Shown piece after piece: positions 5,905 to 53,704 of a stretch of 64,000 nt of DNA. Position 1 is the first letter of the stretch. Each line of letters opens with the position of its first letter. The translations under genes and the position numbers were made by a program. Source of the stretch: a virus. The notes beneath the pieces are model-generated. The model did no database searches. It was not told where the DNA came from and saw only the letters and a list, made by a program, of their open reading frames with translations. The DNA lies in the IMG/VR virus record IMGVR_UViG_2921643360_000001, positions 1 through 64,000 of that record; one strand, written 5' to 3'.

Positions 5905-6713
5905 TGCGCACTCCCTCCGATTTCGCCCTTCTTCTTGTCGGCCAAAACCTTGAACTGGTTCCAGCTTGCGACGTCGCCAATCGCCTCGAACGCTGCGCCA
6001 GCCATTGCGCGAATGCGACGAATGTCGTCGGCGGTGGCTGCGGACGTCAACTGGGTTTCCCACTTCATCCAAGTTTCGTCGGCGCTAGGCTTGCCATCAG
6101 ACCCATGGCCGTCGTCGTCGGCCTGATCCTTGGTGGCTAAGCCAACAGCAGCCAGCAGCGAATAGCGCTCCAGGTAGGTCACGGTCGACGACATCGCCTG
6201 GATGCTGTTCTTCCCTCCAGACTGGTCAAGGCCGGCCTCAAGCGTCGTTTCTTCGCTATGGCCCAGCTTGTGTTTGATGACGCACGTGATGGACATCATT
6301 CCGCCTTCGGTGCGACGCGGAATCCAGCGATGACTGAATCCATAGGTCGCTAGCGACGCAACCACCTTTTCCACTACGTTGCCGATGGTGGCGTGGTCGT
6401 ACGCGGTGACCCCGCTGTTCGTCTTGAACTCGACGTGCTTGTCCTTGAGGATCGTCGGCGGGTTCAGCTTGAACTCAGCCATTGATGCGTCAAACGCCTT
6501 CCTCGCCTCGCGGTCTTCCCACTGCATTTGCATCTGCATGAGCCGTTCAAGACGATCAAGGTCGGCACCACTTTCAAGCGCATATCGCACAAGGTCTGCC
6601 GGCGTGGCGGATGCCGCGGTGACAGCGCGCGTCTGTTGAACTGCCGGTGGCTTTGCTGCGATCGGTTCGGCCATCTCAACATCTGTAATGTCTGCCATGG
6701 TTGCGGTTTGCAT
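5901..6713 (-). CDS. erf: ERF-family single-strand annealing protein
   Basis: Core resembles P22 Erf (SSTVTYLERYSLLAAVGLA vs SSYARKYCLNGLFGIDD), followed by an acidic DQADDDG stretch. Sits next to the exonuclease and SSB. Confidence 0.65.
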   Translation of the reverse strand: MQTATMADITDVEMAEPIAAKPPAVQQTRAVTAASATPADLVRYALESGADLDRLERLMQMQMQWEDREARKAFDASMAEFKLNPPTILKDKHVEFKTNSGVTAYDHATIGNVVEKVVASLATYGFSHRWIPRRTEGGMMSITCVIKHKLGHSEETTLEAGLDQSGGKNSIQAMSSTVTYLERYSLLAAVGLATKDQADDDGHGSDGKPSADETWMKWETQLTSAATADDIRRIRAMAGAAFEAIGDVASWNQFKVLADKKKGEIGGSAQ

Positions 6714-6724
6714 GCTTGCTCCAG

Positions 6725-14710: not shown

Positions 14711-15556
14711 TTGATTACTGAATTGCAACTGCATCCGCTCTGCACTCTCTTCCCGAGAATTGTCGGTGCGGAATTTGAGGCGTTGAAGGCGGACATCGTC
14801 GCCAATGGCCTGCGTCAGCCGATTGTGGTCCACGACGGCATGATCCTGGACGGCGGCAATCGCTATCGTGCCTGTATCGAGGCTGGAATCGAACCGTCTA
14901 CGGTTGAATTTGATGGCGGCAATCTGGTGTCGTTCGTCCTGTCGGCCAATCTGCATCGCCGCCACCTGTCAGAAGGCCAGCATGCCGCAATCGTCGCGAG
15001 CGCCCAGCAATGGGAGTCCGCGCAATCGCAAGGGAGACCGAAGAAAACCGGTAACGTTACCGGATTATCGACAGTGGCAGAGAGACGGGCGGTATCTGGC
15101 GCAAGCGATAAGACGCAGCGCATGGCGGACAAGGTGGCGAGAGAGTCACCGGAACTCGCAAAGAAAGTCGCGCAAGGCGAAGTCAGCCTTCCTAAAGCAA
15201 TCAAGCAGCTCGCGCCTGCAAAGGCCGCCCCAGTAGCGGAACCTGAGCCCGAACAGGTCGAGGCCGCAGAGGAGGAGTTTGGCCCTAGCGCGGAAGAGAT
15301 CGCATTTCTTGAGGCGACCGAACAGGCCGACAGAGACGCCTATAACAACCTTGTCGAGATCGCAGCGGCTGACGACAAACTCGCCGAGGCGCTTGCACTG
15401 GTCGTCACGCAAACCCATGAGATCGCACGACTCAGGGCGCTTGTTCGTGTCGTAGAAGAGTCGCGCGACGGCAAGATGATGACGATCAACGAGCAGATCC
15501 GCACGATCAAATCATTGCAGCGAAAACTCGAAAAATTCGAAAGGACTGCGGCATGA
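14711..15556 (+). CDS. ParB-like nuclease-domain protein
   Basis: N-terminal ParB/Srx fold (LHPLCTLFPRI...GLRQPIVVHDGMILDGGNRYRACIEAGIE) and an acidic Ala-rich C-terminus. TTG start inferred. Confidence 0.7.
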   Translation: MITELQLHPLCTLFPRIVGAEFEALKADIVANGLRQPIVVHDGMILDGGNRYRACIEAGIEPSTVEFDGGNLVSFVLSANLHRRHLSEGQHAAIVASAQQWESAQSQGRPKKTGNVTGLSTVAERRAVSGASDKTQRMADKVARESPELAKKVAQGEVSLPKAIKQLAPAKAAPVAEPEPEQVEAAEEEFGPSAEEIAFLEATEQADRDAYNNLVEIAAADDKLAEALALVVTQTHEIARLRALVRVVEESRDGKMMTINEQIRTIKSLQRKLEKFERTAA

Positions 15557-17085
15557 ATCACGTTCTCTTTGAAGATCGGCCCAACTACGAGACTGTTAGC
15601 TTCCCTAAGCCGCGACCGTTCCAGACTTCGGCGCACGACCGGCTTCGCGAAGGACGGCGCGCAGGACACAAGAATCAACTCGTGATGGCTCCGACTGGCG
15701 CCGGCAAATCTTATCTTGGTCTCCGCATCGCTCATGAAGCATTGGCGAAGGGGCGCAAGGCGATTTTCGTTTGCGACCGCGAGGCGTTGATCGACCAGAC
15801 TAGCGAGGTCGCAGACAAATATGGCCTAAGCGCGCATGGAGTCATCAAGGCGAATCACTGGCGCGTAAATCGCGATATGCCATTCCAGATCGCGAGCGCG
15901 CAGACGTTGGCTCGTCGCGGATGGCCCGAAGATATGGACGTGATCATCATCGATGAAGCGCACACCCAGTACACGGTATGGCGAGATTACATCCCGAACT
16001 GCCGCGCGTCCGTCATTGGATTGTCTGCAACTCCGTTTTCAGATGGTCTAGGAAAGCTTTTTAGCAATCTGATCAATGCCACGACTATGCACGACCTCAC
16101 CGAATCCGGCGTGCTTGTGCCGATGCGCGTGTTCTCGTGCAAGAAAACCAATATGGACGGCGCTGCAACTCGCGGTGGCGAGTGGACCGATTCCGCCGCC
16201 GAGGAGCGCGGCATGGAAATCGTCGGTGATGTGGTGGCCGAATGGATGAAGCTTGGCGAAGGCCGCAAGACAATCGTCTTTGGTTCCACGATCAAGCATT
16301 GCGAGGAATTGTGCCGGGAATTCAATGCCGCTGGCGTGATGGCCGCCGTGTTCACATCTGAAACGCCGCCCGAACAGCGCAAGCCGCTCCTTGAGGAATA
16401 CCGAAAGCGTAACTCAGTGTTGCGCGTGCTGATTAGCGTTGAGGCTCTGGCGAAGGGATTTGATGTGCAGGATGTTGGCTGCGTTGTCGACTGTCGGCCT
16501 CTCCGCAAGTCTCTAAGCACGGCAATCCAAATGTGGGGAAGAGGCCTGCGTTCGTCGCCGGAAACTGGTAAGCAAGATTGCCTGCTTCTTGATCATAGCG
16601 GGAACATCACCCGGTTTTTGGATGACTACACCGACATTTTCTATAACGGCCTCGACGCGTTGGATGCTGGTGAAAAGCTGGATAAGGCGGTGCGCAAGGA
16701 GCCTGAAGAGAAGGAGGTGGTCGCCTGCCCTTCATGCGGCTATAAGCCTTTCGGACGGCGCTGCATGTCGTGCGGATTCGAGCCGAAATCTTCAGCCCTT
16801 GTGGAGGCCGTACCCGGTGAAATGCAGGAGGTCGTTATAGGAAAAAGGAAATTGGCCGACGACAAACGGCACCTATATGCGCAGATCTGCACATATGCGC
16901 GCTCCCATAGTGACCCAGACAAGCAGCGTGGGCGGGCGGCGCACCTTTATCGAAAAATCATGGGCGATTGGCCGCCACGTGACTTCGTGTTCGAGAAGAC
17001 GGAGAACGTCACCATCGAGCGCAACACACTGAACAAGATCAAATCAACCAACATTGCTGCGGCAAAGGCGCGCTCAAATGGCTGA
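15553..17085 (+). CDS. SF2 DEAD/DEAH-box DNA helicase with C-terminal zinc ribbon
   Basis: Walker A (MAPTGAGKS), DEAH box (IIIDEAH), SAT motif, helicase-C motifs, and CPSCG...CMSCG at the C-terminus. Confidence 0.85.
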   Translation: MNHVLFEDRPNYETVSFPKPRPFQTSAHDRLREGRRAGHKNQLVMAPTGAGKSYLGLRIAHEALAKGRKAIFVCDREALIDQTSEVADKYGLSAHGVIKANHWRVNRDMPFQIASAQTLARRGWPEDMDVIIIDEAHTQYTVWRDYIPNCRASVIGLSATPFSDGLGKLFSNLINATTMHDLTESGVLVPMRVFSCKKTNMDGAATRGGEWTDSAAEERGMEIVGDVVAEWMKLGEGRKTIVFGSTIKHCEELCREFNAAGVMAAVFTSETPPEQRKPLLEEYRKRNSVLRVLISVEALAKGFDVQDVGCVVDCRPLRKSLSTAIQMWGRGLRSSPETGKQDCLLLDHSGNITRFLDDYTDIFYNGLDALDAGEKLDKAVRKEPEEKEVVACPSCGYKPFGRRCMSCGFEPKSSALVEAVPGEMQEVVIGKRKLADDKRHLYAQICTYARSHSDPDKQRGRAAHLYRKIMGDWPPRDFVFEKTENVTIERNTLNKIKSTNIAAAKARSNG

Positions 17086-17941
17086 CTTCATTAGTTTTGC
17101 ACTTTCGCATGGCGTTGTTATCAACCGCTTGGATGACAGCGGGCGTATCAAACGCTGCGGCACGGTCGATCACCCGAAATCCACCAACGGCGCATACATG
17201 TGGGACGGGCAGCGTGGTTTTGCATTCGCATGGGACGCGGACGCAGAGCCGAAGTGGTTCAACGATCCGCACGCGAAGCCGTGGACCGAAGAGGAAAAGC
17301 GAGCGTTCGCAACGCGGCAAGACGCTGAGCGCCGCAAGAAAGTTGGGCGCTATCAGCAGGCAGCGAGGAATGCAGCGGAACTGATGAAGACGGCAGTTAT
17401 GGGCGAGCACAACTACTTCCATTACAAGGGTCTGCCCTTGGCTCGCGGTCTGGTGTTGCCTGATGGCGGTCTGTTCGTGCCGATGCGCGGTCTGAGTGGC
17501 GGTCTGCAGGGCGCGCAGACGATCCGATGGGATGCAGAGAACCGCACGTACGAAAAGAAGATGCTGTCGGGCATGCGGGCGAAAGGCGCCGTGCTGAAGC
17601 TTGGCCCGGCCCGATCGAACGAGACGGTGCTGTGTGAAGGCTACGCGACCGGCCTGTCGATCGAAATGGCAATCCGCCAGATGCGCCTGAATACTCAAGT
17701 GCTGGTGTGCTTCTCGGATTCAAACATGGCTTTCGTCGCGTCGAGCGTGAATGGTCGCAAGTTCGTGTTTGCCGATAACGATAAGTCTGGCGCTGGTGAG
17801 CGTGCGGCAAAGCAAACCGGCCTGCCCTATTGCATGAGCGAACAACTTGGAGAGGACGCTAATGATATGCACGTTCGGTCTGGCCTGATGGCGGTCTGTC
17901 AGAAAGTGATGGCGCTTAGACGAATGGATAAGGCGGCATGA
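17078..17941 (+). CDS. TOPRIM-domain DNA primase
   Basis: TOPRIM motifs (VLCEGYATGLSIE; VFADNDKSGAGE). N-terminal Zn-binding-like segment. Start ATG 17078 overlaps the helicase stop. Confidence 0.65.
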   Translation: MADFISFALSHGVVINRLDDSGRIKRCGTVDHPKSTNGAYMWDGQRGFAFAWDADAEPKWFNDPHAKPWTEEEKRAFATRQDAERRKKVGRYQQAARNAAELMKTAVMGEHNYFHYKGLPLARGLVLPDGGLFVPMRGLSGGLQGAQTIRWDAENRTYEKKMLSGMRAKGAVLKLGPARSNETVLCEGYATGLSIEMAIRQMRLNTQVLVCFSDSNMAFVASSVNGRKFVFADNDKSGAGERAAKQTGLPYCMSEQLGEDANDMHVRSGLMAVCQKVMALRRMDKAA

Positions 17942-18105
17942 TCCACGACCCAGCCAGATTACGCGAGGTCATCGAAGAAATCGCCGCTTGGCCCCTCGAC
18001 AAACGTCGCGAATACATCCGGCAAATCGAAGAGGCAAACGGAAAGTCCGCAGCAGATCAACTGCGAGCGGGGTTGGTGGAATTGTGGCGGGAACGGGATA
18101 AGTAG
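17938..18105 (+). CDS. hypothetical 55-aa protein
   Basis: ATGA-coupled to the primase stop. Confidence 0.3.
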   Translation: MIHDPARLREVIEEIAAWPLDKRREYIRQIEEANGKSAADQLRAGLVELWRERDK

Positions 18106-18120
18106 AGGGGAAGCGAGAAA

Positions 18121-19539
18121 ATGCAACGAAGAGCAAACGTAGAGTTGAGGACTGCTTACAACGCTTTCATTGAAAGCAAGCGCATGTCCGATCCGGCATC
18201 GGGGTTGACGGAAATCCCGGCGCTGAATCAAACGCTCAAGCCGCACCAGCACGACATTGTGACGTGGGCTCTCCGTCGCGGTCGGGCTGCCGTGTTCGCC
18301 GGAACTGGCCTGGGCAAGAGTTTCATGCAACTGGAATGGGCTCGCTGTGTCGCTGAGGCAACGGATATGCCCGTGCTAATCCTGGCGCCGCTCGCTGTGG
18401 CCGCGCAAACGAAGCGAGAAGGCGAAAAGTTCGGGATTGAGGTCAAGCACTGCCGAGAGCAATCGGAAGTTGGCGATGCATCGATCGTCGTCACGAACTA
18501 TGACCGGCTGCAGAAATTCGACCTTGAGCATTTCGCAGGCGTCGTGCTGGATGAGTCGAGCATCCTCAAGGCATCAGACGGCAAGACCCGCACGGCAATC
18601 ATCGAGGCATTCAAGGATTACCGATTCCGGCTCGCCTGCACCGCTACGCCGGCGCCGAACGATTACATGGAGCTCGGCAACCACGCGGAATTCCTTGGCG
18701 TGATGACGCAGGAAGAAATGCTGGCGATGTTCTTTATTCACGACGGTGGCGAGACGCAGAAATGGCGCCTCAAGGGCCATGCAGAAAGCGAGTTCTGGAA
18801 ATGGATGTGCTCGTGGGCCGTGATGCTGCGCAAACCGTCCGACCTTGGCTATCCGAACGACGGCTACGATCTGCCGCCGCTGGCTATCGAGCAAATCACG
18901 GTTGGTGTCGACCATGACCGCGCGCAAGACACGCTTTTCGTGATGCAAGCCGCGACGCTGCAGGACCGGATCAAAGAGCGGCGCGAGACCGTCGAGGAGC
19001 GCTGCCGTGCTGCCGTCGAAATCATCGCCCGTAAGCCCGATACGCCGTGGCTTGTGTGGTGCAACCTGAACAGCGAAGCGGAACTCATGACGAAGCTGAT
19101 CGCGGATGCCGTTGAGGTTCGCGGTTCCGACAAGGTCGAAGACAAGGAACGCAAGCTTCTCGGCTTCACGGACGGCCAGATTCGCGTCATGACGACCAAG
19201 CCAAGCGTAGCCGGATTTGGGATGAACTGGCAGCACTGCGCAGACATGGTTTTCGTCGGCCTCAACGACTCATACGAGCAACTGTTTCAGGCAATTCGCC
19301 GTTGCTGGCGCTTCGGGCAGACGAAGCCAGTGAATGTCTATCTCGTGGCTGCTGAGACCGAAGGCGCAGTCGTGGCGAATCTGCATCGCAAAGAGGCTGA
19401 CGCCGAGCGCATGGCTGAGCAGATGGTCGCTCACATGCAGGACATTACCGTCGCCACGATTCGCGGCACGTCCCGAACCAAGACCGAATACAACCCGTCC
19501 GTCGAAATGACGATCCCCCAATTTCTGGAGGCTGCATGA
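18121..19539 (+). CDS. SNF2-family helicase
   Basis: PHQHDIV, Walker A AGTGLGKS, DExx (VVLDESS) and C-terminal helicase motifs. Confidence 0.85.
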   Translation: MQRRANVELRTAYNAFIESKRMSDPASGLTEIPALNQTLKPHQHDIVTWALRRGRAAVFAGTGLGKSFMQLEWARCVAEATDMPVLILAPLAVAAQTKREGEKFGIEVKHCREQSEVGDASIVVTNYDRLQKFDLEHFAGVVLDESSILKASDGKTRTAIIEAFKDYRFRLACTATPAPNDYMELGNHAEFLGVMTQEEMLAMFFIHDGGETQKWRLKGHAESEFWKWMCSWAVMLRKPSDLGYPNDGYDLPPLAIEQITVGVDHDRAQDTLFVMQAATLQDRIKERRETVEERCRAAVEIIARKPDTPWLVWCNLNSEAELMTKLIADAVEVRGSDKVEDKERKLLGFTDGQIRVMTTKPSVAGFGMNWQHCADMVFVGLNDSYEQLFQAIRRCWRFGQTKPVNVYLVAAETEGAVVANLHRKEADAERMAEQMVAHMQDITVATIRGTSRTKTEYNPSVEMTIPQFLEAA

Positions 19540-20417
19540 AAGTTTTGAATGAAAAGATCGGCGCCGACTACGCCATGTATCACGCAGATTGCGTGGAAGG
19601 CGTATCGGGCCTGCCGGATGAATCCGTGGGGTTCTCGGTATTCAGCCCGCCATTCGCAAGCTTGTACACGTACAGCAACAGCGATCGCGACATGGGCAAT
19701 TCGAAAGACGATGGCGCGTTCGATGTTCACTTTCAGTTTCTGGTGAAGGAGCTGTATCGAGTTCTCAAGGCTGGCCGCCTGGTGTCGTTCCATTGCATGA
19801 ACCTGCCGACCAGCAAAGCGCATCACGGCTTCATCGGCATCCGGGACTTCCGCGGTGACCTGATCCGCATGTTCGAGAAGGAAGGTTTCATTTTCCATAG
19901 CGAGGTATGCATCTGGAAAGACCCGGTTACGGCGATGCAGCGCACGAAAGCACTTGGGTTGCTGCACAAGACGATCCGCAACGATTCGAGCATGAGCCGA
20001 CAGGGTATCCCCGATTACCTGGTGACGATGCGCAAGCCGGGCAAGAATCCTGAGCCGATCGCGCACACGCACGAAGAGTTCCCCGTCGAGCTGTGGCAGC
20101 AATACGCGTCTCCCGTGTGGATGGACGTAAATCCTAGCGACACGCTGACATTCCGCGAAGCTCGCGATGAAGAAGATGAGAGACATATCTGCGCTTTACA
20201 GCTCCCCGTCATCGAGCGCGCGCTGAAGCTTTGGAGCAATCCGGGCGACGTGGTGCTGTCCCCGTTCGGCGGGATTGGCTCAGAGGGATATGTCTCACTG
20301 CAAATGGGGCGCAAGTACATCGGCTTCGAGCTCAAGGAATCGTACTGGAAAGTTGCTTGCAAAAATCTTGAGTCGGCAAAGGCAAGCATGGGCGACATGT
20401 TCGCGGAGGTGGCGTAA
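19536..20417 (+). CDS. DNA methyltransferase (N6-adenine / N4-cytosine, beta class)
   Basis: Catalytic SPPF (DPPY-type) motif near the N-terminus and the AdoMet motif FGGIGSEG near the C-terminus. Start overlaps the SNF2 stop within a GGAGGCTGCATGA junction. Confidence 0.85.
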   Translation: MKVLNEKIGADYAMYHADCVEGVSGLPDESVGFSVFSPPFASLYTYSNSDRDMGNSKDDGAFDVHFQFLVKELYRVLKAGRLVSFHCMNLPTSKAHHGFIGIRDFRGDLIRMFEKEGFIFHSEVCIWKDPVTAMQRTKALGLLHKTIRNDSSMSRQGIPDYLVTMRKPGKNPEPIAHTHEEFPVELWQQYASPVWMDVNPSDTLTFREARDEEDERHICALQLPVIERALKLWSNPGDVVLSPFGGIGSEGYVSLQMGRKYIGFELKESYWKVACKNLESAKASMGDMFAEVA

Positions 20418-21582: not shown

Positions 21583-22199
21583 AGAAACTGATTCTCAAGA
21601 AACTGTTGCGGGTGCATTCCAACGCCTGCTCTACGCCCTACTACCACCTGTCCGGCTACATGCTACGCGACTGGATTCTCGGTTACCGCAGCCCGGATCG
21701 AAACGCCGATAACCCAGCATGGAAAGCGGGCTTTAGCCCGAAGTCGTCGGCGCTCTATCGCTGGATCTGCCGCAACGTCGCTATCCGCGCTCACACGATC
21801 CTGCGCAGCGACAACGACCGTCACTTGCACGACCATCCGTCGTGGTCGCTGTCGATCGTGCTGTCGGGCGGGTATTGGGAAGTGTGCGAGCCGACCGAAT
21901 GGGCGAAGCAATTCGGAGCAACGTACCGCCGAATCGTCGACGGACTCGACCGGGGAATGATCGACAACGAAGACAGTTACGAACTCGACTACGTTGCACG
22001 GTTCGGAATCTTCTGGCGCGGACCCGGCGCGATCGTCCTGCGTCGCGCTACTGACTTCCATCGCCTGATCCTGCCACGTGGCACGGTCGCCAAGTCAATA
22101 TTCGTCATGGGCAAGAAAACCAACAGTTGGGGCTTCCTGACGCCTAACGGCAAGGTCTACTGGCGCACGTATCTCGGTCTCGACAAGGAACAAGCATGA
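21579..22199 (+). CDS. hypothetical protein
   Basis: 206 aa. Contains a His-rich segment (HLHDHPSWSLSIVLSGGYWEV); the fold is not recognised. Confidence 0.45.
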   Translation: MKKLILKKLLRVHSNACSTPYYHLSGYMLRDWILGYRSPDRNADNPAWKAGFSPKSSALYRWICRNVAIRAHTILRSDNDRHLHDHPSWSLSIVLSGGYWEVCEPTEWAKQFGATYRRIVDGLDRGMIDNEDSYELDYVARFGIFWRGPGAIVLRRATDFHRLILPRGTVAKSIFVMGKKTNSWGFLTPNGKVYWRTYLGLDKEQA

Positions 22200-23266
22200 C
22201 TCTCGAACACTCGCAGACAGGCGGAATCGGAGACGTCAATTCCAGCGAGCGCGGCTCCGGAGCGAGATACAACACGGGCAAGGTTGCTATCGAGTTGATC
22301 CCTCTGCGTCTGATCGCGGAACAACTTGAACACGCCACGTCGGAAGACGATCCGCAAAACACGCTTATCGGCGCCCTGTGGAATCTCGCGTTGTTTCAGG
22401 AAGGCGGCGAGGCGCATTACCTGCGCGCGGCAATCGAAAACGTCGGATCGGCATGGGACGAATGCGCGGCGGTATTCGACTACGGGCGGAAGAAATATAG
22501 CAAGCGAGGTGATTGCACATGCAGTGCGGGCGATGCGGTACGACTGAACCTGAGCGGTTCTATCTATACACCTACAAAGGCGCAAACATCCGAAAGTTGC
22601 TCAAGGGATTTTGCAAGCCTTGCTACGACAAAGACCTCAAAGAGCGGAATCCAGGGTATCGGAAGCGACAAACCGAAAACCATCGAAAGTGGCTCGCAAA
22701 CCCTGAGAACAGAGAGCGAGCGCGCGCATCTGAACGGAAGCGATCTGCAAAGCGAAAGCTGGACCCAAATTACAAGGAGCAATCCAAGCTCTACCGAATC
22801 AAGCAGGAATACGGACTCACGCCTGAGCAGTACGACACCCTCATCGCGGCAGGATGCGCAATCTGCGGAAGCTTCGATCGATTGCATGTCGACCATTGCC
22901 ACGACAAAGGACACGTCAGAGCAGCGTTATGCCATTCCTGCAACATTGGCCTTGGATTTGTCGAAAGGCCTAACGGCTGGCTTGAGCGCGCACTCGAATA
23001 CCTGCGGCGTACATCAGACGCCGGGGCACACGGGTAACTGGAACTGGGCCAAGGGAATGGCGTGGAGCGTTCCCCTCGCCTGCGCTGCCCGCCATCTGAT
23101 CTTCGGCATGATGGCCGGTGAAGAACTCGACCCTGAATCGGGCCTGCCCCATCGCGGTCACTTCCTCTGCAATCTCGTGATGCTGCTGACGTTCATGCGG
23201 ACCTATCCGGAGGGAGATGATCGTCCGTCGCAATGGTTGGCTACGCCGACACAGGAAGCCGCATGA
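22196..23266 (+). CDS. MazG-like dATP/dGTP pyrophosphohydrolase-family protein interrupted by a 540-bp insertion (reading frame stays open)
   Basis: N-terminal 100 aa and C-terminal 75 aa look like protein. The central 180 aa are S/T-rich low complexity and correspond to an alternative frame of the nested HNH gene. Confidence 0.45.
   Translation: MTLEHSQTGGIGDVNSSERGSGARYNTGKVAIELIPLRLIAEQLEHATSEDDPQNTLIGALWNLALFQEGGEAHYLRAAIENVGSAWDECAAVFDYGRKKYSKRGDCTCSAGDAVRLNLSGSIYTPTKAQTSESCSRDFASLATTKTSKSGIQGIGSDKPKTIESGSQTLRTESERAHLNGSDLQSESWTQITRSNPSSTESSRNTDSRLSSTTPSSRQDAQSAEASIDCMSTIATTKDTSEQRYAIPATLALDLSKGLTAGLSAHSNTCGVHQTPGHTGNWNWAKGMAWSVPLACAARHLIFGMMAGEELDPESGLPHRGHFLCNLVMLLTFMRTYPEGDDRPSQWLATPTQEAA
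22519..23037 (+). CDS. endonuclease VII-family HNH nuclease
   Basis: LHVDHCHDKGHVRAALCHSCNIGLG is the EndoVII/HNH signature. GAGGTG RBS 8 nt upstream of ATG 22519. Lies wholly inside 22196..23266 in a different frame. Confidence 0.75.
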   Translation: MQCGRCGTTEPERFYLYTYKGANIRKLLKGFCKPCYDKDLKERNPGYRKRQTENHRKWLANPENRERARASERKRSAKRKLDPNYKEQSKLYRIKQEYGLTPEQYDTLIAAGCAICGSFDRLHVDHCHDKGHVRAALCHSCNIGLGFVERPNGWLERALEYLRRTSDAGAHG

Positions 23267-40905: not shown

Positions 40906-42432
40906 ATGACCCAAATTGTCCAATACGGACAGGTCAACACGACAGCGCTGATCGTTCCAGACCTGATCGTGCAGATCATTGCGCCCCAGGTCGCACAGCT
41001 TAACGGCGTGCCCACGAACGTAGCCGGTTTTGTTGGCACGGCGACGTGGGGCCCGGTTAATTCGCCGACCATCGTCGGCAGCATGGCGGATTACGCGCGC
41101 AACTTCGGCGCAATCCAGAACCGCCTGTACGACATGGGCACGGCAGTCGCTGCCGCTGTCCTGCAAGGCGCGAACAACTTCCGCTGTGTCCGCGTGACGG
41201 ACGGCACGGATACGGCTGCTTCGATCCTGGTTCAGTCGACCTGCATCACGTTCACATCGAAGTACACGGGCACGCTCGGTAACTCGACGCAAGTGCAGAT
41301 TGCCACCGGGTCCGCAGCGAACACCTTCAAAGCGATCGTTTCGATGCCCGGTCAAACGCCGGAAGTGTTCGACAACATCGGCGGTACGGCTAACGCGCTG
41401 TGGGTCAACATGGCTGCAGCGATCAACGGCGGCCAGGTCGGTGCGCGCGGCCCCTCGCAACTGATCGTTGCAACCGCTGGCGCAGGCACGACGGCGCCGA
41501 CGCCTGCGACCTACACGCTGGCAAGCGGTACGGATGGCGCAACCACGATCACGGGCTCGGTTCTCATCGGCCAGGACACGCTTCCTCGCAAGGGCATGTA
41601 CGCACTTCGCGGCACGGGCGCATCGGTTGCCGCTCTCGTCGACTGCTCGGACACGACGACGTTCTCAACGCAGGTCTCGTATGGCCTGTCCGAGGGCACG
41701 TACATGATCGGCGTCTCGCCGGTTGGCGACACGATCACCAACGCCGTGACGGTCAAGGCAACGGCCGGCATCGATTCGTATGCGTTCAAGTACATGTTCG
41801 GCGACTGGGTCTACTTCCTCGATCCCGTTAATGGCGGCACGCGACTGATCTCGCCGCAGGGTTACGTGGTCGGCGTGCTGGCGAACCTCGCTCCGCAAAA
41901 CTCGTCGTTGAACAAGCAACTGTATGGCGTGGTCGGCACGCAGAAGTCGTATCAGAACCAGCAGTACTCGAGCGCGGAGCTTCAAACGCTGGCTCAGGCC
42001 GGTATCGACGTCATCACGAACCCGATCCCAGCTGGCAATCAGTTCGGCTGCCGCATCGGTCACAACAGTTCGTCGGACAGCACCCGCAACGGCGACAACT
42101 ACACGCGGATGACCAATTACCTCGCGGCCACGACGGCGCAGGGCATGGGCATCTACGACGGGCGCCTGCAATCGGTGCAGCCGACCGATCCGCTGCGTCG
42201 TGCAGTCAAGGCCACGCTGGACAACTTCTATCTGAACCTGCAGCAGCAAGGCCAGATCGACGACTTCACGGTCCAGTGCGACCTGAACAACAACCCGGCA
42301 TCGCGCATCGCGCTTGGCTACCTGCAAGCCGATGTCCGCGTGCGCTACCTAGCTGTCGCCGAAAAGATCCTGATCAACCAGGAAGGCGGCCAGTCCGTGA
42401 CGATCTCGCGCCAGCAAGTCGCTTCGTTCTAA
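40906..42432 (+). CDS. contractile tail sheath protein
   Basis: 508 aa; size and position before the tube gene; myovirus tail module. Confidence 0.75.
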   Translation: MTQIVQYGQVNTTALIVPDLIVQIIAPQVAQLNGVPTNVAGFVGTATWGPVNSPTIVGSMADYARNFGAIQNRLYDMGTAVAAAVLQGANNFRCVRVTDGTDTAASILVQSTCITFTSKYTGTLGNSTQVQIATGSAANTFKAIVSMPGQTPEVFDNIGGTANALWVNMAAAINGGQVGARGPSQLIVATAGAGTTAPTPATYTLASGTDGATTITGSVLIGQDTLPRKGMYALRGTGASVAALVDCSDTTTFSTQVSYGLSEGTYMIGVSPVGDTITNAVTVKATAGIDSYAFKYMFGDWVYFLDPVNGGTRLISPQGYVVGVLANLAPQNSSLNKQLYGVVGTQKSYQNQQYSSAELQTLAQAGIDVITNPIPAGNQFGCRIGHNSSSDSTRNGDNYTRMTNYLAATTAQGMGIYDGRLQSVQPTDPLRRAVKATLDNFYLNLQQQGQIDDFTVQCDLNNNPASRIALGYLQADVRVRYLAVAEKILINQEGGQSVTISRQQVASF

Positions 42433-42444
42433 CCTGGAGAAAAC

Positions 42445-42876
42445 ATGGCAATCGGCCCTTTCAATACCGGGCGGGACGTAGTGCTTGACGTGACGACCCC
42501 GACCGGCCCGCTGCGCCTACCCACGACGACCACGTCATGGGAAGCCAAGCCGAAGTACAAGGAAATCGAGTCGGTCTCGATCAGTGGCGAGAACAACCAC
42601 GCGTCTATTCCTATCGGCTGGACCGGGACTATCGGTCTGGACCGCACGGATAACTCGGTGGATGCTTTCTTCGCCACGCTTGAGGCGAACTACTACGCCG
42701 GCATCAACATCGGCTACGCGACGATCACCGAGACGATCTCGGAAGGCAATGGCTCGGTGAGCCAGTACCGCTACACGAAAGTGTCGCTGCGCCTCGAGGA
42801 GCACGGCAAGTTCGTCGGTGATGACCGCGTGCAAGTGACGATCGGCTTCTCGGCGTCGCGTCGCGTCCCGCTGTAA
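42445..42876 (+). CDS. tail tube protein
   Basis: 143 aa directly after the sheath gene. Confidence 0.65.
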   Translation: MAIGPFNTGRDVVLDVTTPTGPLRLPTTTTSWEAKPKYKEIESVSISGENNHASIPIGWTGTIGLDRTDNSVDAFFATLEANYYAGINIGYATITETISEGNGSVSQYRYTKVSLRLEEHGKFVGDDRVQVTIGFSASRRVPL

Positions 42877-42976: not shown

Positions 42977-43342
42977 ATGACGAAGAAACCAACGCTGGAA
43001 CTGAATGCGGCAACGGTCGAGCAGCCCGCTCCGATCGCCGACAATCTAATCACCGACGCAAAAGGTCGCGTGCTGAAGGTGGTCGAGCCTGACATCCTGG
43101 CGGAAAGCCGACTGATGCGCCTGGTCGGCCCCGAAGCGGCGCTGAATCCGGCCTACATGCGTCTGTACGTGCTGCCGGCCGTCTCGGTAGTCGAGATCGA
43201 CGGCGAGGAAATGCCGTTTCCGATGAGCCAGCGTGAAGTCGACGCGGCAATCAAGCGACTCGATCACGATGGCATCAACGCTGTCATCCAGTATCAGGCG
43301 AAAAAGCGCAAGGACGAAGAAGACGCGGCAGTAAAAAACTAG
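42977..43342 (+). CDS. tail assembly chaperone (gpG-like)
   Basis: 121 aa. The slippery heptamer A_AAA_AAC sits immediately before its stop. Confidence 0.65.
   Translation: MTKKPTLELNAATVEQPAPIADNLITDAKGRVLKVVEPDILAESRLMRLVGPEAALNPAYMRLYVLPAVSVVEIDGEEMPFPMSQREVDAAIKRLDHDGINAVIQYQAKKRKDEEDAAVKN
43333..43339 (+). other. programmed -1 ribosomal frameshift site (A_AAA_AAC)
   Basis: After a -1 slip, reading continues as L-A-R-N-P-A-F-Q-E-A-C-W-L-M-K-N-G... without a stop until 43539. This is the frame of the listed ORF 43378..43539. Confidence 0.6.
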
Positions 43343-43539
43343 CGCGGAACCCTGCTTTTCAGGAAGCCTGCTGGCTGATGAAGAATGGGGTTCCGTTTCA
43401 TAGCGCGTTCGGCATGCCGGCGTCGCGTGACTGGCGGATCGACAAGATCGAGCGTCGCGCGATGGCAATCACGTTCTCGTGCTTTAACGGTGCGGAATAC
43501 GACTGGGAAGCGATGCGCTTCAAGGATCCGCCGAGATGA
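43339..43539 (+). CDS. -1 frame extension giving the gpGT-type fusion chaperone
   Basis: Open from 43339 to the TGA at 43537-43539 in the -1 frame relative to gpG. Conserved G/GT arrangement upstream of the tape measure. Confidence 0.55.
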   Translation, partial: LARNPAFQEACWLMKNGVPFHSAFGMPASRDWRIDKIERRAMAITFSCFNGAEYDWEAMRFKDPPR

Positions 43540-44009
43540 AATTCAACAGTTTCAGCGCCTTCGCCAATCATCTTCAGAAACTCGCTGTGACGACGCCGGA
43601 AGTGACGCATGAGATGGTGAAGTCCGGCGCCAAAGAGATCGAGGATACGGCGAAGGGCATGATCGGGTTCTATCAGACCGACATCGCGCCTTATCCGACT
43701 TGGGCGCCGCTAAGCGAGAAGTACGAAGCCGCCAAGGTTGCGGCTGGATTTGAGCCGGATGCACCATTGCTGCGGACTGGCGAAATGCAGAAGAGCATCA
43801 GATCGACCGCTGAACGCAACGAGGCGGCGACGGGCTCGAATGACAAGGTGCTGGAGTATCACGAGTTCGGCACGCCGAATATGCCGCCGCGCCCTGTTCT
43901 CGGTCCTGCGGCACATCACAGTACGCCACGAATCATCTCCAGCATGGCTGCGACGACGTTTTATTTCCTCTCCGGGAAGGGCTGGCGCGCTCAGCTACGC
44001 CGGAAGTAG
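43536..44009 (+). CDS. HK97 gp10-family tail component
   Basis: LEYHEFGTPNMPPRPVLGPA matches the E-F-G-T...R-P-F-L motif of that family. Confidence 0.5.
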   Translation: MKFNSFSAFANHLQKLAVTTPEVTHEMVKSGAKEIEDTAKGMIGFYQTDIAPYPTWAPLSEKYEAAKVAAGFEPDAPLLRTGEMQKSIRSTAERNEAATGSNDKVLEYHEFGTPNMPPRPVLGPAAHHSTPRIISSMAATTFYFLSGKGWRAQLRRK

Positions 44010-44239
44010 AAGAACAGAAACACGATGGCGAGCACAGCAAGATAGACGCCAATGTATGGCACAAACAGCAGCATCGACGGCATGAACAGCGCACACAGTT
44101 TCGGTATGTGCGGTCGTGTTGCCCAGCGTGCCTTCCAGCCGTGAGCATGACCGCTCAGGCTTTTCACATTCGGCTTCGGGTACTGAATAAAGCTGACGCG
44201 ATCCGCCAGCCATTCGTGGATTCGGTAGGCGATGCCCAT
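43991..44239 (-). CDS. hypothetical membrane protein (opposite strand)
   Basis: 82 aa with a C-terminal TM (LCALFMPSMLLFVPYIGVYLAVLAIVFLFF). Could be a shadow ORF. Confidence 0.25.
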   Translation of the reverse strand: MGIAYRIHEWLADRVSFIQYPKPNVKSLSGHAHGWKARWATRPHIPKLCALFMPSMLLFVPYIGVYLAVLAIVFLFFYFRRS

Positions 44240-44274: not shown

Positions 44275-46180
44275 ATGATCAACGTCTACGAAATCGGCAC
44301 GACGCTCAAGCTGAATGACCTGATCACGCCGCAACTGCTCAAGTTGTCGGACGAGTTCCGCAAGGTCGATGCGATCGCACTGCAGATCAACAAGCGCCTG
44401 AAGTCGATGGGCGCCGAGATCGTAGGCATTCGGAATCTTGCGGGCGCAACGAAAGGCCTGGCCGCCAGCATGAAAGCGATCAAGGACGAGTCGGCGCTGG
44501 CAGAAAAGAATCTGTTTGCGCTGCGCATGGCGTTGCCCAGTGGCGGTCTCGGACTCGAAGCCGAACTGATCGCGGCGAACGTGCAGGCTCGCACGCTGCG
44601 CGACGCTGGCTGGCATTCGTGGCGGCGGCCGCTTGCCTCCCGGTGGCGGCGGTGGTCATCTGCCGTCTCCTGGCGGTGCGGGTGGCGGTCGTCGCGGTGG
44701 CGGTCACATTCACGGCGGCAACATCCATGTTGGCTCAGGCGGAATCGGTATCGGCGGAATCGGCATGGGACTGATGAGCGATGCTCTGATCCCGCTCGGC
44801 GCGGGCATGGTCACCTACTACGTCGGCAAGCAGTTCTACGAAGGCGCGAAGGACTATCAGGACGCCTTCATGCGCTTCAAATCGCTGAATCTCGGCGATC
44901 AGGTCAATGCTGAGGCTGACAAGTTCGTCAAGGCGACGAAAGTCTACGGCGTCTCGCAGACCGAACTGATGAAGGCGCTGGGCGAATCGGTTGGCCTGTT
45001 CGGTTCGTTCGATGAGGCGAAGAAGTTCACGCCCGACCTGCTGACGCTCGGTAAGGCCAACTCGGCGGTATTCGGCGACAAGAACGGGCATCTCGACGAT
45101 GAGGGGTTGAAAAGCCTGCTCAAGTTCATCGATCGCCGCGGTGGATTCAAGGACGAAGCGACATTCAAGCGCAATCTTGACCTCGCAGAAAAGATGGTCA
45201 CAGGCTCATCCGGGTTCTTGAAGTTTAACGACCTCGGCGCATTCTCCCAGAACGCAGGCACGGCATTCCGCACGCTTTCCGATGAGGGTTTGCTGGAAAT
45301 GGAGGGCCTGCTGATCGAACAAGGCGGCCAGAAAGCGGGTACGGCGTGGATGAGCCTGTATCAGAACCTGGTCGCTGGCCGCACGCCGAAAAAGACGATG
45401 GGTCTGCTGCAAGACCTTGGTCTCGGGACGCTCCAGATGCAGGAGCATGGTTCTGTCGGCGGCAAGCCCCTGAAGTCTCTTGTCATGGCGGATATCAAGG
45501 AGTCCGCGCTACTCCAGTCGAATCCGCCAAAGTGGATGCGCGACGTTCTGATCCCGACCATGCAGGCGCATGGGATTACGTCAGAGGCTCAGCAGTTGAA
45601 AGCGGTGAACGACATTCTGTCGAACCGTACAGCGTCTGGTCAGGGTTCCATCATGACGACGCAGCAGTTCCAGCTTTTGCGGGACTTTCACCTTGCCAGG
45701 GGCGCTATGGGCGCAGACAAGGTGTCCGGCATGTTCAAGGACTCCGCATCGGGCGCTGAAGCCGATTTCGACGCTGCGTGGACGGATTTCAAGAAGCAGT
45801 TCGGCACTACGATGCTGCCACAGATCACGAGCATGCTGAAGACCGGAACAGACCTGCTGCGCTCGCTGGCAAGCATCACGGAAAGCGAGAACTTCAAGTC
45901 GTTCATGAGTTTCGCATCAAAGGTCAACGGCACCTTCGGCTGGCTGCCAAAGCAGTTTTTCGGCTCAGCCAATGCGGCTGAACCCGGACAAAGCCCGAAC
46001 GTTAAGACGGGCACGCCACAGCCTTTCAAGCTGAGTACGACTATCAACCTCGACGGCAGAAAGATCGGCGAGGCGGCGACGGACTACATCCTGAATGGCA
46101 TGGGCAAGCCCCAATCCACCAGTTCCGGCTTCGATTTCACACGCGCAGCACCGCCAATCGGCCACTCTTTCGCACGCTAA
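44275..46180 (+). CDS. tail tape measure protein with apparent +1 frame break near 44600-44635
   Basis: A plausible N-terminal part is in frame 1 (44275..about 44610). The remainder is in frame 2, a 515-aa ORF starting with a Gly-rich segment. The junction lies in a ggcggcggcc/GGN repeat tract. Confidence 0.6.
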
Positions 46181-47134
46181 ATGGCAACCAATCTCTCTCT
46201 CGGCGATGTCCTGTTCGCGGATCTCGAAATCCCTGAACACATCACGTTCGGCGGCGAACAGCGGCTGACGGTGCATGAACTGGTCGGCGGCACGCGCATT
46301 ATCGACGCGATGGGCCGCTCGGACATGCCGCTTGACTGGTCGGGCTGGTTCATGGGTCAGAATGCGCTGGCTCGTGCGCAATATCTCGAGGCGCAGCGCA
46401 TCGCCGGCACATCGGTGCCGCTGGTCTGGTCCGAACTGTTCTACGACGTTGTCATCCAGCGATTCGAGGCGGATTTCCAGCGCGAGTGGATGATCCCTTA
46501 TCGGATCACCTGCGTTGTGGTTGCGAATCATGCGCAGCCGCAGACGTCGCTTGCTGGACCGTCGATCAACGACCTGATGGCGTCGGACCTGTCGAGCGCC
46601 AACCTGCTTGCGAGCCAGATCGGCAATAGCACGCTGACCGGTCTGATGGGCACGGTCAATTCGGCTATCTCCACAGTATCGAGCTTCGCCAGCGCTACGG
46701 CCAGCACGATCAATAGCGTTCTTCAGCCGATCAATGCGGTACAGCAGCAGGTTGCGACGCTGATCGGGCAAGCGGCAAACACGATGGCGAACGTGACGAC
46801 ACTGGGCGGCATCCTGCCAAATAACCCGATCTCGACATCGGTGGCGAACATCGCGGCACAAGTCACGGCGTATCAGCAATCTCCCCTGCTCTACAACCTC
46901 CAGTCCGTCATGGGGCGTATGTCGATCAACCTCGGCAACGTCACAGGTGCGACGCAGCAGATCACGACGGCTGGCGGCAACCTGATGGATCTGGCCGCCA
47001 AGGTCTACGGCAAGGCTGAAGCATGGACGGGCATTGCAAAGGCTAACGGCCTGAGAGATCCCGTTGTGCAGGGCGTTCAAACACTCAACATTCCGGTCAC
47101 GCCGGATAACAGCGGCGGCGTCCTGACTTCATGA
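46181..47134 (+). CDS. tail protein with C-terminal LysM-like domain (Mu gp43 / P2 gpX-like)
   Basis: C-terminal AKVYGKAEAWTGIAKANGLRDPVVQGVQTLNIP resembles LysM. Confidence 0.55.
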   Translation: MATNLSLGDVLFADLEIPEHITFGGEQRLTVHELVGGTRIIDAMGRSDMPLDWSGWFMGQNALARAQYLEAQRIAGTSVPLVWSELFYDVVIQRFEADFQREWMIPYRITCVVVANHAQPQTSLAGPSINDLMASDLSSANLLASQIGNSTLTGLMGTVNSAISTVSSFASATASTINSVLQPINAVQQQVATLIGQAANTMANVTTLGGILPNNPISTSVANIAAQVTAYQQSPLLYNLQSVMGRMSINLGNVTGATQQITTAGGNLMDLAAKVYGKAEAWTGIAKANGLRDPVVQGVQTLNIPVTPDNSGGVLTS

Positions 47135-48273
47135 CGACACTCAACATCGTTCCTGCGGTCGCCTCCGCACGGCAGCCGCGCGGCATGGTGTTGCTGGGCG
47201 ACCCGAATCAGCCTGGCACGTCGGTTCCGTGGATCGACTGGGACGTCGAGCAGAACGCGTGGCATTCGGCCAGCACGTTTCGCATGCGCCTGCCTATCTC
47301 TGCGCTGAGCGCTCCAATTGATCTGAATTACGTGCTCGGCACAAACCCGATCCAGGCGCAGATCTTCGCAGGCTTTCCGGGCAACCCCGATAGCTACGGA
47401 ACAGCCGATCTCCAGCAACTCATCACGGGCAACGTCGACCAGATCCAGTTTGGGCCGGCGAGGCGCTGGATTGAACTGAGCGGACGCGATTACACGTCGC
47501 TGCTGATCGATGCGAAAACGTTCGACCGCTGGACCAACCAGACGGCGAGCGAGATTGCGGCGACGCTGGCGAATCGTCATGGTCTGAAGCCGCAAGTTAC
47601 TGCGACGACGGGCGCAGTCGGCAAGATCTACGAAATCGACAAGATCCACGATCGGCACGGCAGCACCGAATGGGAATTGCTCACGTGGCTGGCAGGCATC
47701 TATGACTTCGTGGTCTATGTGCAGGGCATGACGCTGTACTTCGGGCCGAAGCCTGACCCGACGACGGCGACGCCCTACGCGCTCCAGTGGAAGAACCCGG
47801 ATGCGCTGACGACTACGACGTTCCAGGGCAATGTGCTCGACATGTCGTTCTCACGCACGCTGACGGTCGGAAAGGGTGTGACGGTTCAGGTTCACAGCTT
47901 AAATCACAAGCAGAAAACCGGATTCACCGTCACTTATCCCGAAAGCAAAGCCAAGGGAATCAAGCCCGGTTCGGCGACCGCGCCCGCTCAGGTCTACAGC
48001 TACATCATCGCCAATCTGACGCAGCAGGATGCACAGCAGCGCGCGAAACAGATCTACGACGACATCATCCACCACGAACTCAAGATGAGCGCCGAACTGC
48101 CAGGCGACAACATTTTGACGCCAAACACGATGGTGAGTGTTTCCGGGACCGAAACACCATTCGACACGATGTATTACGTTGAATCCGTCAGTCGGCGCAT
48201 GAGCATCGATTCAGGTTATTCAATGTCGATGCGCGGCAAGAATCACTCGCTCGACACTACAGTCATTCCATGA
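47131..48273 (+). CDS. baseplate hub / late control protein D-like (P2 gpD, Mu gpP)
   Basis: 380 aa; position and size match. Confidence 0.65.
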   Translation: MTTLNIVPAVASARQPRGMVLLGDPNQPGTSVPWIDWDVEQNAWHSASTFRMRLPISALSAPIDLNYVLGTNPIQAQIFAGFPGNPDSYGTADLQQLITGNVDQIQFGPARRWIELSGRDYTSLLIDAKTFDRWTNQTASEIAATLANRHGLKPQVTATTGAVGKIYEIDKIHDRHGSTEWELLTWLAGIYDFVVYVQGMTLYFGPKPDPTTATPYALQWKNPDALTTTTFQGNVLDMSFSRTLTVGKGVTVQVHSLNHKQKTGFTVTYPESKAKGIKPGSATAPAQVYSYIIANLTQQDAQQRAKQIYDDIIHHELKMSAELPGDNILTPNTMVSVSGTETPFDTMYYVESVSRRMSIDSGYSMSMRGKNHSLDTTVIP

Positions 48274-48920
48274 TCGACAACCTTCTCAACCAGATACGCG
48301 CTCACGCCCAGATGGCCCAGGGCGAGAAGACGACGCATCGGGTCGGCCAGGTGACGGCATATGACCCAAGCAAGTATTCGGTCAAGGTCAAGATGTGGCC
48401 GGACACGCAGGAATCGCTGGGCTGGATTCCGCTTGCGTCGACCTACATCGGGAATGGATGGGGACTCGTCGCGGGGCCATCCATCGGCGATCAGGTGATG
48501 ATCGCATTCGATCGCGAGGATCAGGATGCGGGCGTCGTGGTTGGCAGGTTCTTCACGGATGTGGAGCAGCCCCCGGCCGCCCCATCCGGGGACTTCTGGC
48601 TGGTGCATAAGTCGGGCTCGCTGCTGAAGTTTCACGGCGATGGCTCGGTCGAATTGACAGCCAATGCGACACTGACCTACCGCGCCGCTCAGCATCACTT
48701 CATTGGGCCTGTGCAGATGGATGCCACCCTCAACGTGAATCAGGCGATCAGCGGCGAGGGAGGAATGTCGATCTCTGGCGACAACGGCAGCGGCCACGCG
48801 TCGACCGTCACTGGCAACACGAACTTTGTCGGCGGTGTGACCGCAAACGGTCACGACATCGGCAGCACGCATCAGCACATCAATTCAGGCGGCTCTGGCC
48901 TCGGTGGGGTTCCGCAATGA
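48270..48920 (+). CDS. baseplate spike protein gpV-like
   Basis: 216 aa with a Gly-rich C-terminus. Confidence 0.6.
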   Translation: MIDNLLNQIRAHAQMAQGEKTTHRVGQVTAYDPSKYSVKVKMWPDTQESLGWIPLASTYIGNGWGLVAGPSIGDQVMIAFDREDQDAGVVVGRFFTDVEQPPAAPSGDFWLVHKSGSLLKFHGDGSVELTANATLTYRAAQHHFIGPVQMDATLNVNQAISGEGGMSISGDNGSGHASTVTGNTNFVGGVTANGHDIGSTHQHINSGGSGLGGVPQ

Positions 48921-52060: not shown

Positions 52061-53704
52061 ATGGACCGTGTGATTACGTATGTAGGGATGAGCGTATACG
52101 AATGGCTCTTTTCTAAACAAGCGCAAAGCTCGATGGTCGGGCTCTCGAAGCTGTCGGCCGCCATGTTCGGTTCGAATACCGTGGCCAATGGTCTTTCCTG
52201 CGTACCGACCGGCCCCGCTTCGCTGCAAGTCGTCATCAACCCCGGCGAAATCTACTCGTTCGCCAACCTCGAGAACAGCGTCTGCGGAACGCTGCCGACT
52301 GATTCTCACAGCATCATGAAGCAAGGCGTCCTGCTGGATGCTTTTACGACGACTGCTGGTGCGCTTCCCGCGCCAGGCACGGCTGGACAGTCGGTGAACT
52401 ATCTCATCGAAGCCCAGTACGCAGATTCAGACGTCTCGGTCGATCCGACGACGGGCAGCGCGCCTGTCGTGCTTCAGTTCTATAACTCTTCGAATCCCGG
52501 CTCGCCTTGGAGCGGTCCTGGCGGCCTCGGCGGCACGAGCAACACGTTCCGTAAGGGCGTTGTGTCGCTCCAGATCAAGGCAGGTGCCGCGGCAACGACG
52601 GGCAGCCAGACGACGCCCTCACCTGATGCTGGCTGGACTGGGCTGTGGGTCGTGACGGTCGCCAATGGGCAGACACAGATCCTCGCGGGCAACATCACGC
52701 AATACGCAGGCGCGCCAATCCTGCCGTCGTCGATTCTTTCGTCGATCCAAAGCGGAAATATGTCGTATGCGGTCGCAACCGGGTCGGCTAACGCTCACAC
52801 GATCGCCTTGACGCCGGCTCTCACGTCGCGCGTCGACGGCATGATGATCCGCTACAAGGCTCCTGCCGCCAACACGACAGCCGTGACGCTGAACGATGGC
52901 GTCGGAACGGCCAACGTTCTCGGCGCGAACCACGCGGCACTCCAGGGCGGCGAATACATCACCAACGGTGACGCCATTGTCGTCTGGAATAGCTCGATCA
53001 GCGGCGGTTCGTACATCCTCATCGAATGCACTGGCGGCGCCCTCCAAATCCCCCCCGCCACTCAGAGCCAGCATGCTGTGCAGTTGGGGCAGGTGCAGCA
53101 GAACTATGCGTGGAATGGCGGGTTCCAGGCCGTTAGCGCAACCGGGAACTTTACAGTTCCGGCCGGCGTTTATAGATTGCGTTACCGCGTATGGGGTGGC
53201 GGTGGCGGCTCAGGCGGATGTGGGTCGACTGGCCAGACAGCAGGGGGCGCTGGCGGTGGCGGCTACTCCGAGGGAGTCGCTAGCGTAACTCCTGGTCAAA
53301 CTGTGTCATGCACTATTGGAGCAGCAGGTACCGCCGGGGGGGCAGGTGGCTCCGGTGGTACAGGCGGCACTACGTCGTTCACTGCAGGCGCTTTGACGGT
53401 TTCCGCTACCGGCGGGTCTGGAAGTTCAAACGGCATAGGGTCTGGCGGGAATGGAGCAGCCGGTGGCACCGGATCTGGTGGGCAAAACAACCTGACTGGT
53501 GCCGGCGGCTGCTCGGGTTCGGGCTCGACGGGCGGCCCTGGGGGCATGGGTGGTTCGGCCCCCCAAGGCGGTGGCGGTGGCGGTGGCGCAACTGGGACCG
53601 CCCAGTCCGGGCAGACGCCTGGCGGCGGCGCAGGAGGGCCTGGTGCGGCTGGAGCCAACCCGGGCGCCATTGGCGGAGCTGGTCGCATTGTTTTTGAATG
53701 GTGA
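52061..53704 (+). CDS. tail fibre protein with Gly-rich C-terminal domain
   Basis: 547 aa. The C-terminal 180 aa are about 60 % Gly (GGGGSGGCGSTGQTAGGAGGGG...). Confidence 0.7.
   Translation: MDRVITYVGMSVYEWLFSKQAQSSMVGLSKLSAAMFGSNTVANGLSCVPTGPASLQVVINPGEIYSFANLENSVCGTLPTDSHSIMKQGVLLDAFTTTAGALPAPGTAGQSVNYLIEAQYADSDVSVDPTTGSAPVVLQFYNSSNPGSPWSGPGGLGGTSNTFRKGVVSLQIKAGAAATTGSQTTPSPDAGWTGLWVVTVANGQTQILAGNITQYAGAPILPSSILSSIQSGNMSYAVATGSANAHTIALTPALTSRVDGMMIRYKAPAANTTAVTLNDGVGTANVLGANHAALQGGEYITNGDAIVVWNSSISGGSYILIECTGGALQIPPATQSQHAVQLGQVQQNYAWNGGFQAVSATGNFTVPAGVYRLRYRVWGGGGGSGGCGSTGQTAGGAGGGGYSEGVASVTPGQTVSCTIGAAGTAGGAGGSGGTGGTTSFTAGALTVSATGGSGSSNGIGSGGNGAAGGTGSGGQNNLTGAGGCSGSGSTGGPGGMGGSAPQGGGGGGGATGTAQSGQTPGGGAGGPGAAGANPGAIGGAGRIVFEW

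Follow-up and report, generated by a model that had tools for sequence, protein, structure and literature searches.

The tail module of a prophage in Paraburkholderia steynii HC1.1ba contains a tape-measure gene whose deposited sequence changes reading frame partway along its length, and the question raised by this locus is whether the change is a regulated or programmed event or a defect in the gene or in its sequence record. The stretch of DNA that we analyzed, here called the window, is 64,000 nt long and comes from contig MWML01000013.1 (72,004 nt) of assembly GCA_004334975.1, with each record coordinate equal to the window coordinate plus 1. A preliminary description had reported a +1 switch from frame 1 to frame 2 between 44580 and 44650 and had placed it inside ggcggcggccgc / ggtggcggcggtgg repeats. 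The switch is indeed present in the deposited sequence and falls within that interval, but DNA alignments put the underlying 2-nt gap at 44598/44599, outside the repeats. Apart from two G's that are missing in the deposited sequence, this is a myophage tail tape-measure gene of the ordinary kind, a single ORF of 635 codons.

The proposed identity of the gene rests on profile and positional evidence. The repaired protein matches PHROG_28, "tail length tape measure protein," over residues 174-545 (E=9.6e-8), and several homologues carry the name tape measure protein in their source annotation. Pfam gave no match to either half of the gene, and PDB gave none to the sequence of the closest intact homologue; because these matches are absent, the support for the predicted tape-measure function is moderate. 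The gene also lies where a tape-measure gene is expected, behind the tube and chaperone genes and ahead of the baseplate hub genes, and this synteny and the PHROG_28 match uphold the identification made at the outset. Upstream are the genes for the sheath (40906-42432) and the tube (42445-42876) and a putative tail assembly chaperone pair (42977-43539, + strand), the latter recognized by its position and frameshift arrangement, its PHROG match having no assigned function. Downstream lie two genes on the + strand (46181-48273) encoding proteins of 317 aa (PHROG_21362) and 380 aa (gpD/hub-like, PHROG_52; 47131-48273), with the baseplate V gene (48270-48920) next after the gpD-like gene.

An unusual feature of the module is the presence of a gpS-like gene and a reverse-strand ORF between the chaperone pair and the tape-measure gene. 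The former (43536-44009, +) encodes a tail completion/gpS-like protein matching Pfam PF05069 (E=5e-6) and PHROG_26 (E=1.7e-14). The latter (43991-44239, -) is a conserved 82-aa ORF with no Pfam or PHROG match, and a reverse ORF of 82-85 aa occupies the same place in phage Albius, in the relatives L002, L006, and L013, and in the P0002 contig.

In frame 1, the ORF extends from 44275 to 44913 (212 aa) and begins MINVYEIGTTLKLNDL... Its first 108 codons (44275-44598, +; MINVYEIG...ANVQARTL) translate to a sequence collinear with the N-termini of the homologues P0001-P0008 and of Albius U2_00041, and the match to homologues ends at ...ARTL (codon 44596-44598). After ...NVQARTLRDAG the translation is W/R-rich, as first reported, so that the frame-1 protein is plausible for about 108 codons only. 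The 104 codons that follow (44599-44913, +) are a +2-frame reading of the Gly-rich linker and are non-coding in reality, the proteins of the relatives continuing at this point with the frame-2 sequence. Frame 2 is open from 44570, directly after a TGA at 44567-44569, and reads ...ATLAGIRGGGRLPPGGGGGHLPSPGGAGGG... up to the stop at 46180. Homology in this frame extends from 44600 (ATLAGIRGGG...) to that stop and starts 11 codons before the TTG at 44633, at which a mechanical ORF call begins (44633-46180, 515 aa). The remainder of the tape-measure gene therefore consists of 526 codons plus the stop (44600-46180, +; ATLAGIRGGGRLPPGGGGG...IGHSFAR), comprising a Gly-rich linker, a hydrophobic segment, and a long body.

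A homology search with a conceptual protein, made by joining the frame-1 and frame-2 translations, returned 115 homologues. More than 50 of them, 627-645 aa long, align as a single polypeptide to 96-100% of the query, and the highest identities to the joined protein are 91, 81, 79, and 78%. The joined pieces cover 100% of many single-ORF homologues, and the 515-residue continuation described originally is confirmed. At the DNA level the lesion is a net loss of 2 nt within 44598-44601 (+), as located by pairwise and multiple alignments, a blastn gap census, and a brute-force enumeration of deletions. The window reads ACGCTG--CGCGACG where the relatives read ACGCTGGCGGCGACG, and alignment to the closest relative, the metagenome contig L002, which is 84% identical in nucleotides across the gene, gives ACGCTG--CGCGACGCTGG in the window against ACGCTGGCGGCGACGCTGG. 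The sequence CTG GCG GCG ACG is common to L002, L003 (Paraburkholderia phymatum EG181B), and L009, and the window has CTG-CG-CG at this site, with one G gone from each GG doublet. Where a tape-measure protein would be expected to occupy a single long ORF, the window copy is split at 44598/44599.

The length of the gene agrees with this placement, the span 44275-46180 being 1906 nt in the window versus 1908 nt in both L002 and L006, which bears out the +1 direction of the change in reading-frame terms. Restoring two bases gives 1908 nt and 635 codons (635 aa), the same length as in L002 and L006. In the blastn gap census against L002 and L003, the gap at 44598/44599 alone changes the frame of the tape-measure gene without compensation. 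Over the region between 34.6 and 53.1 kb that aligns to L003 (18.5 kb), the other out-of-frame gaps within ORFs are all compensated within a few tens of bases. The lesion lies 22 nt upstream of ggcggcggc (44621-44629) and hence outside the GGC/GGN tract. The earlier expectation that one G more or one fewer would restore a single frame does not hold, since two G's are missing and they are missing some 22 nt upstream of the repeat.

The arrangement seen in the relatives is uniform. All inspected proteins that span the site, and all 9 relatives for which DNA was available, run through it in a single frame, and the N-terminal 140 residues translated from DNA read ...A(R/K)(T/A)LAATLAGIRGG... or its equivalent without interruption in eight of eight full-length or partial relatives. 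The prophage tail modules of P. phymatum EG181B (L003, 89% aa identity), of the metagenome contig L002 (P0001, 91%), of Burkholderia ubonensis (P0005, L006), and of Burkholderia cepacia (P0007) are collinear with the window. Their Paraburkholderia/Burkholderia homologues, 632-635 aa long with an identical ...ARTLAATLAGIRGG... junction, are all intact, whereas the CTGCGCGACG allele is found in the window only. A search for a near-identical phage with an intact allele, using a pattern of the exact flanks with a variable gap, found no match in metagenome or viral contigs; a protein-guided scan of metagenome contigs yielded relatives at no more than 88% identity, and among genome contigs the matches were P. 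phymatum (89%) and a Cupriavidus (39%).

Shorter homologues of 444-475 aa were considered as natural two-gene versions and rejected, P0033 because it ends at the end of its contig and P0034 (L013) because it is an independently frameshifted copy with a different lesion. In L013 (2492-4368; JGI metagenome Ga0598453_002516) the tape-measure gene is split into ORFs of 196 and 455 aa by an out-of-frame deletion in GSGGIGIGGVGMG-coding (GIGGIG-coding) repeats, ∼150 nt downstream of the site in the window.

To assess the age of the lesion, we aligned the repaired window gene codon by codon to L002, L003, and L006 and counted codons changed in one taxon only. In the repaired frame, the changes specific to the window number 38 synonymous to 5 non-synonymous (4:0 before the lesion and 34:5 after it), and the same count gives 38:3 for L002 and 24:1 for L003, both intact. 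On these substitution counts both halves of the window gene are shown to be under purifying selection. Given that selection on the window gene resembles that on its intact relatives, the lesion is either very recent or absent from the organism. A long-standing pseudogene in a decaying prophage was accordingly rejected, selection being unrelaxed (38:5) and the other ∼100 genes appearing intact. In a crude gene map these ∼100 prophage genes are tightly packed, with many ATGA-type overlaps, and no further broken gene was seen among them, nor did inspection of GC3 reveal further split genes in the larger intergenic gaps. Two other pairs of overlapping ORFs on the same strand were examined as candidate further frameshifts and proved to be distinct genes, namely 5251-6084 and 5901-6728 (-), which encode a YqaJ exonuclease and ERF, and 18106-19539 and 19419-20417 (+), which encode a helicase and a DNA methylase.

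The two bases may be missing from the phage or from the record. Brute-force enumeration indicates that CTGGCGGCGACG, the sequence of L002, L003, and L009, cannot become the CTGCGCGACG of the window by any contiguous 2-nt deletion, but only if each GG doublet loses one G. A pair of such contractions at a spacing of 3 nt has the pattern of homopolymer under-calling and is improbable as two independent mutations, which favors an artefact. Homopolymer context and documented low assembly quality, the marks by which such an artefact is recognized, coincide here, each missing base being a G of a GG doublet and the source assembly GCA_004334975.1 consisting of more than 1000 contigs with an N50 below 80 kb (PMC8506256). 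The 471-aa protein that represents the gene in databases (P0006) has ncbi/uniref/nr sources only and is found in no Logan assembly of the strain. The RefSeq annotation of GCA_004334975.1 has been removed. The assembly may be an Ion Torrent genome, which serves as a lead only.

Several observations count against an artefact. With a single frameshift in 64 kb, errors are not obviously frequent in this region; a GG doublet is a short run for a homopolymer error, and two such errors in the same consensus would be unusual; and genuinely broken copies do occur among the relatives, as in L013. Weighing these points, we give slightly better than even odds (a probability of roughly 0.55) to the lesion having been introduced by base calling or consensus building in a draft assembly of low quality, and we infer that the gap arose in sequencing and not in the cell. 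Two GG doublets would each have been read as a single G, and the frame moves by +1 at a point 22 nt upstream of the repeated Gly codons. The lesion is unprogrammed. If it is an artefact, there is no biological event at the site, and the real phage would encode an intact tape-measure protein of the normal 635 aa.

The strongest competitor, to which we assign appreciable weight but less than even odds, is a genuine and very recent mutation of the prophage gene, either one 2-nt deletion or two 1-nt deletions. The deposited sequence does carry the lesion, and an ancestor with GCC-GCG, one synonymous change away, would give CTGCGCGACG exactly by loss of a single GC. The lack of any other frameshift in 64 kb also suggests that the assembly is not visibly error-ridden in this region, and the independent out-of-frame deletion of L013 demonstrates that broken relatives exist. 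Against this, the mutation would have required two separate events if it started from the GCG GCG that all three closest relatives carry; unrelaxed selection (38:5) and the intact state of all other genes mean that the mutation must be extremely recent, and the assembly quality is poor. Were the deletion real, translation from 44275 would stop at 44913 and yield 212 aa, of which 108 are native and 104 out of frame, and the 526-codon remainder would be left with no convincing start or ribosome-binding site. Tail assembly depends on an intact tape-measure protein, and the prophage would have become defective only recently.

A second programmed frameshift had been among the causes first proposed. 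It would join the 108-residue N-terminal segment to the body of the protein by a ribosomal shift of +1 (or -2) and would give the tail module two recoding events, and we regard it as very improbable. The two frames do overlap, frame 2 being open from 44570 and frame 1 up to 44913, and the same module has a real -1 site in its chaperone gene. There the set-up is canonical, with A_AAA_AAC at 43330-43336 and a -1 frame open from 43237 to 43539; the ORF 42977-43342 ends ...GTA AAA AAC TAG, placing the heptamer directly before the stop, a 53-aa ORF (43378-43539) is the tail of the -1 frame, and small ORFs syntenic with the pair are present in L002 and in the P0002 contig. At the tape-measure lesion, however, the homology boundaries restrict any shift to CUG-C-GCG (44596-44602), where neither +1 nor -1 re-pairing is available and the P-site codon CUG in particular cannot re-pair at +1. 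No slippery motif occurs at CUG-CGC, whether an X_XXY_YYZ heptamer or a +1 site of the CUU_U or CCC_U type, no stop codon in the 0 frame lies at the shift site, and there is no homopolymer of at least 4 nt for transcriptional slippage. Programmed sites are conserved, whereas that of the window is unique to one draft contig, and the examined relatives lack a two-frame arrangement and encode ...ARTLAATLAG... in one frame.

Equally remote is a phase-variable contingency locus, in which slipped-strand mispairing in the GGC/GGN tract would toggle tape-measure and hence tail production. A short GGC/GGN-rich stretch does lie within 25-60 nt of the lesion, and the length of the Gly-rich linker does vary among relatives, a comparison that had been suggested at the outset. 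In the closer, confidently aligned relatives, though, the linker differences are in-frame multiples of 3 (for example a 3-nt gap at 44678 versus L003). The lesion itself is outside the tract. A regex scan of 44560-44670 found (GGC)3 at 44621-44629 (+) as the only short repeat, with CCC the longest homopolymer. The (GGC)3 repeat contributes to the Gly-rich linker, does not coincide with the site of the shift, and because its period is 3 is unable to shift the frame. No homopolymer of at least 4 nt and no di-, tetra-, or pentanucleotide tract is found near the lesion, and Tandem Repeats Finder at a minimum score of 30 reported no array at 44600-44660, its only hit being a 9-nt repeat in 2.1 copies at 44746-44764. 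The lack of a repeat or slippery motif and the in-frame state of the relatives thus remove both the phase-variation and the programmed-frameshift explanations, and of the three causes originally offered only the sequencing or assembly indel is favored.

As improbable as these is that the 1906-nt allele is real and a working tape-measure is still made from it, by an unconventional +1 shift at CUG-C-GCG or as a 108-residue domain and a 526-residue body in two polypeptides; all programmed or regulated explanations together retain at most a very small share of the probability. Least credible of all is a pair of bona fide genes, one for an N-terminal-domain protein of 110 aa and the other for a tape-measure body of 515 aa, an arrangement suggested by the GenBank annotation of the C-terminal 471-aa protein alone and by the two ORFs of a mechanical listing but contradicted by the fusion of both parts in one ORF in more than 50 homologues, by the extension of the frame-1 ORF 104 codons into out-of-frame sequence, by the lack on inspection of a good ribosome-binding site before the TTG at 44633 or the ATG at 44765, by frame-2 homology that precedes the first start codon by 11 codons, and by our finding no relative with an in-frame stop and restart at the lesion point.

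The main use of the result is a corrected gene model and a caution for annotation. The GenBank record annotates only a fragment, BZM27_06070, which has 471 aa, starts at an internal ATG (44765-46180, +; 44766-46181 in MWML01000013.1), and is the homologue P0006, to which the frame-2 product of the window from that ATG is 100% identical; the N-terminal 108 codons are missed. In the same record the fragment is not marked as a pseudogene, and an 80-aa antisense ORF is called over the N-terminal region (44286-44594, -). The HC1.1ba prophage should not be called tail-defective in assessments of completeness or tail function without resequencing, and the GGC/GGN glycine-codon runs beside the frame break should not be taken for phase-variation tracts, since their 3-nt period keeps the frame.

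A single prophage seems to occupy most or all of the window, and its content includes an integrase, ERF and YqaJ recombination genes, helicases, a Toprim protein, a methylase, NinG, a putative head region, and the contractile-tail module. The integrase gene is at 481-1554 (-). ARAGORN found no tRNA or tmRNA gene in the whole window (1-64000), the surroundings of the integrase included, so that no tRNA in the window presents itself as an obvious attachment site. A gene for an SPFH/Band_7 protein (3806-4777, -) adjoins those of the YqaJ exonuclease (5251-6072) and the ERF recombinase (5901-6713), which, as called from the first start codon, overlap by ∼170 nt in different frames. The replication module (15553-20417, +) contains two SF2 helicase genes (15553-17085 and 18121-19539), a Toprim_3 ORF (17054-17941, +) that overlaps the first of them by 32 nt, and an N6/N4 DNA methylase gene (19536-20417, +). 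In a 356-aa ORF at 22196-23266 (+), residues 247-343 match PF18909, the dATP/dGTP diphosphohydrolase N-terminal domain (E=3.6e-18), and Pfam matches nothing in the first 246 residues; the prophage may use this protein in nucleotide-pool metabolism or in DNA modification. At the tail-fibre position, a stop-to-stop open frame of 547 codons (52061-53704, +) has very high GC3, and its long antisense and alternative-frame open stretches misled a simple GC3-based gene picker.

Comparison with known systems places the lesion among familiar phenomena. The tail assembly chaperones of lambda (G/GT) and P2 (E/E+E') are made by a programmed -1 frameshift, and their counterpart in this module is the site at 43330-43336, two genes upstream of the tape-measure gene. 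The tape-measure lesion differs from it in having no slippery heptamer, in its opposite direction (+1), and in being conserved in no relative. The programmed +1 frameshift of prfB takes place at CUU UGA C with an upstream Shine-Dalgarno sequence, and the lesion is like it in shift direction only, lacking a re-pairing codon of the CUU-U type, an in-frame stop, and conservation. A closer likeness is to flow-based sequencing (454 / Ion Torrent), for which homopolymer-length indel errors are described (for example, in PMC3711422). Like such indels, the two G-doublet contractions in the window break the frame of a gene that is otherwise conserved, in a draft assembly that is fragmented, although the doublets are short for this class of error. 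Sequencing indels and frameshift mutations that disrupt structural genes of prophages are both well-known kinds of lesion, and no new biology is involved.

Among sequenced phages, the Ralstonia phages Albius, Hyacinthe, and Raharianne (Rahariannevirus) have a gene in the tape-measure position and the same gene order as the window. In Albius, as in the window, this order is sheath, tube, chaperone, neck/gpS-like gene, small reverse ORF, tape-measure-position gene, genes for proteins of 320 and 370 aa, and baseplate. Its U2_00041 protein (QMV32416.1; 636 aa, annotated "hypothetical protein") is encoded by an uninterrupted 1911-nt ORF and has the architecture of the window protein, with a conserved N-terminal segment of ∼110 aa, a Gly-rich linker, a hydrophobic segment, and a long body; nucleotide identity to the window is 74% over the first 143 nt and overall protein similarity is moderate, and relative to it the window copy lacks 2 nt at codons 109-110. 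The window gene is a routine member of the Burkholderiaceae myophage tape-measure family, and its closest sequenced phages are those of the genus Rahariannevirus of Ralstonia.
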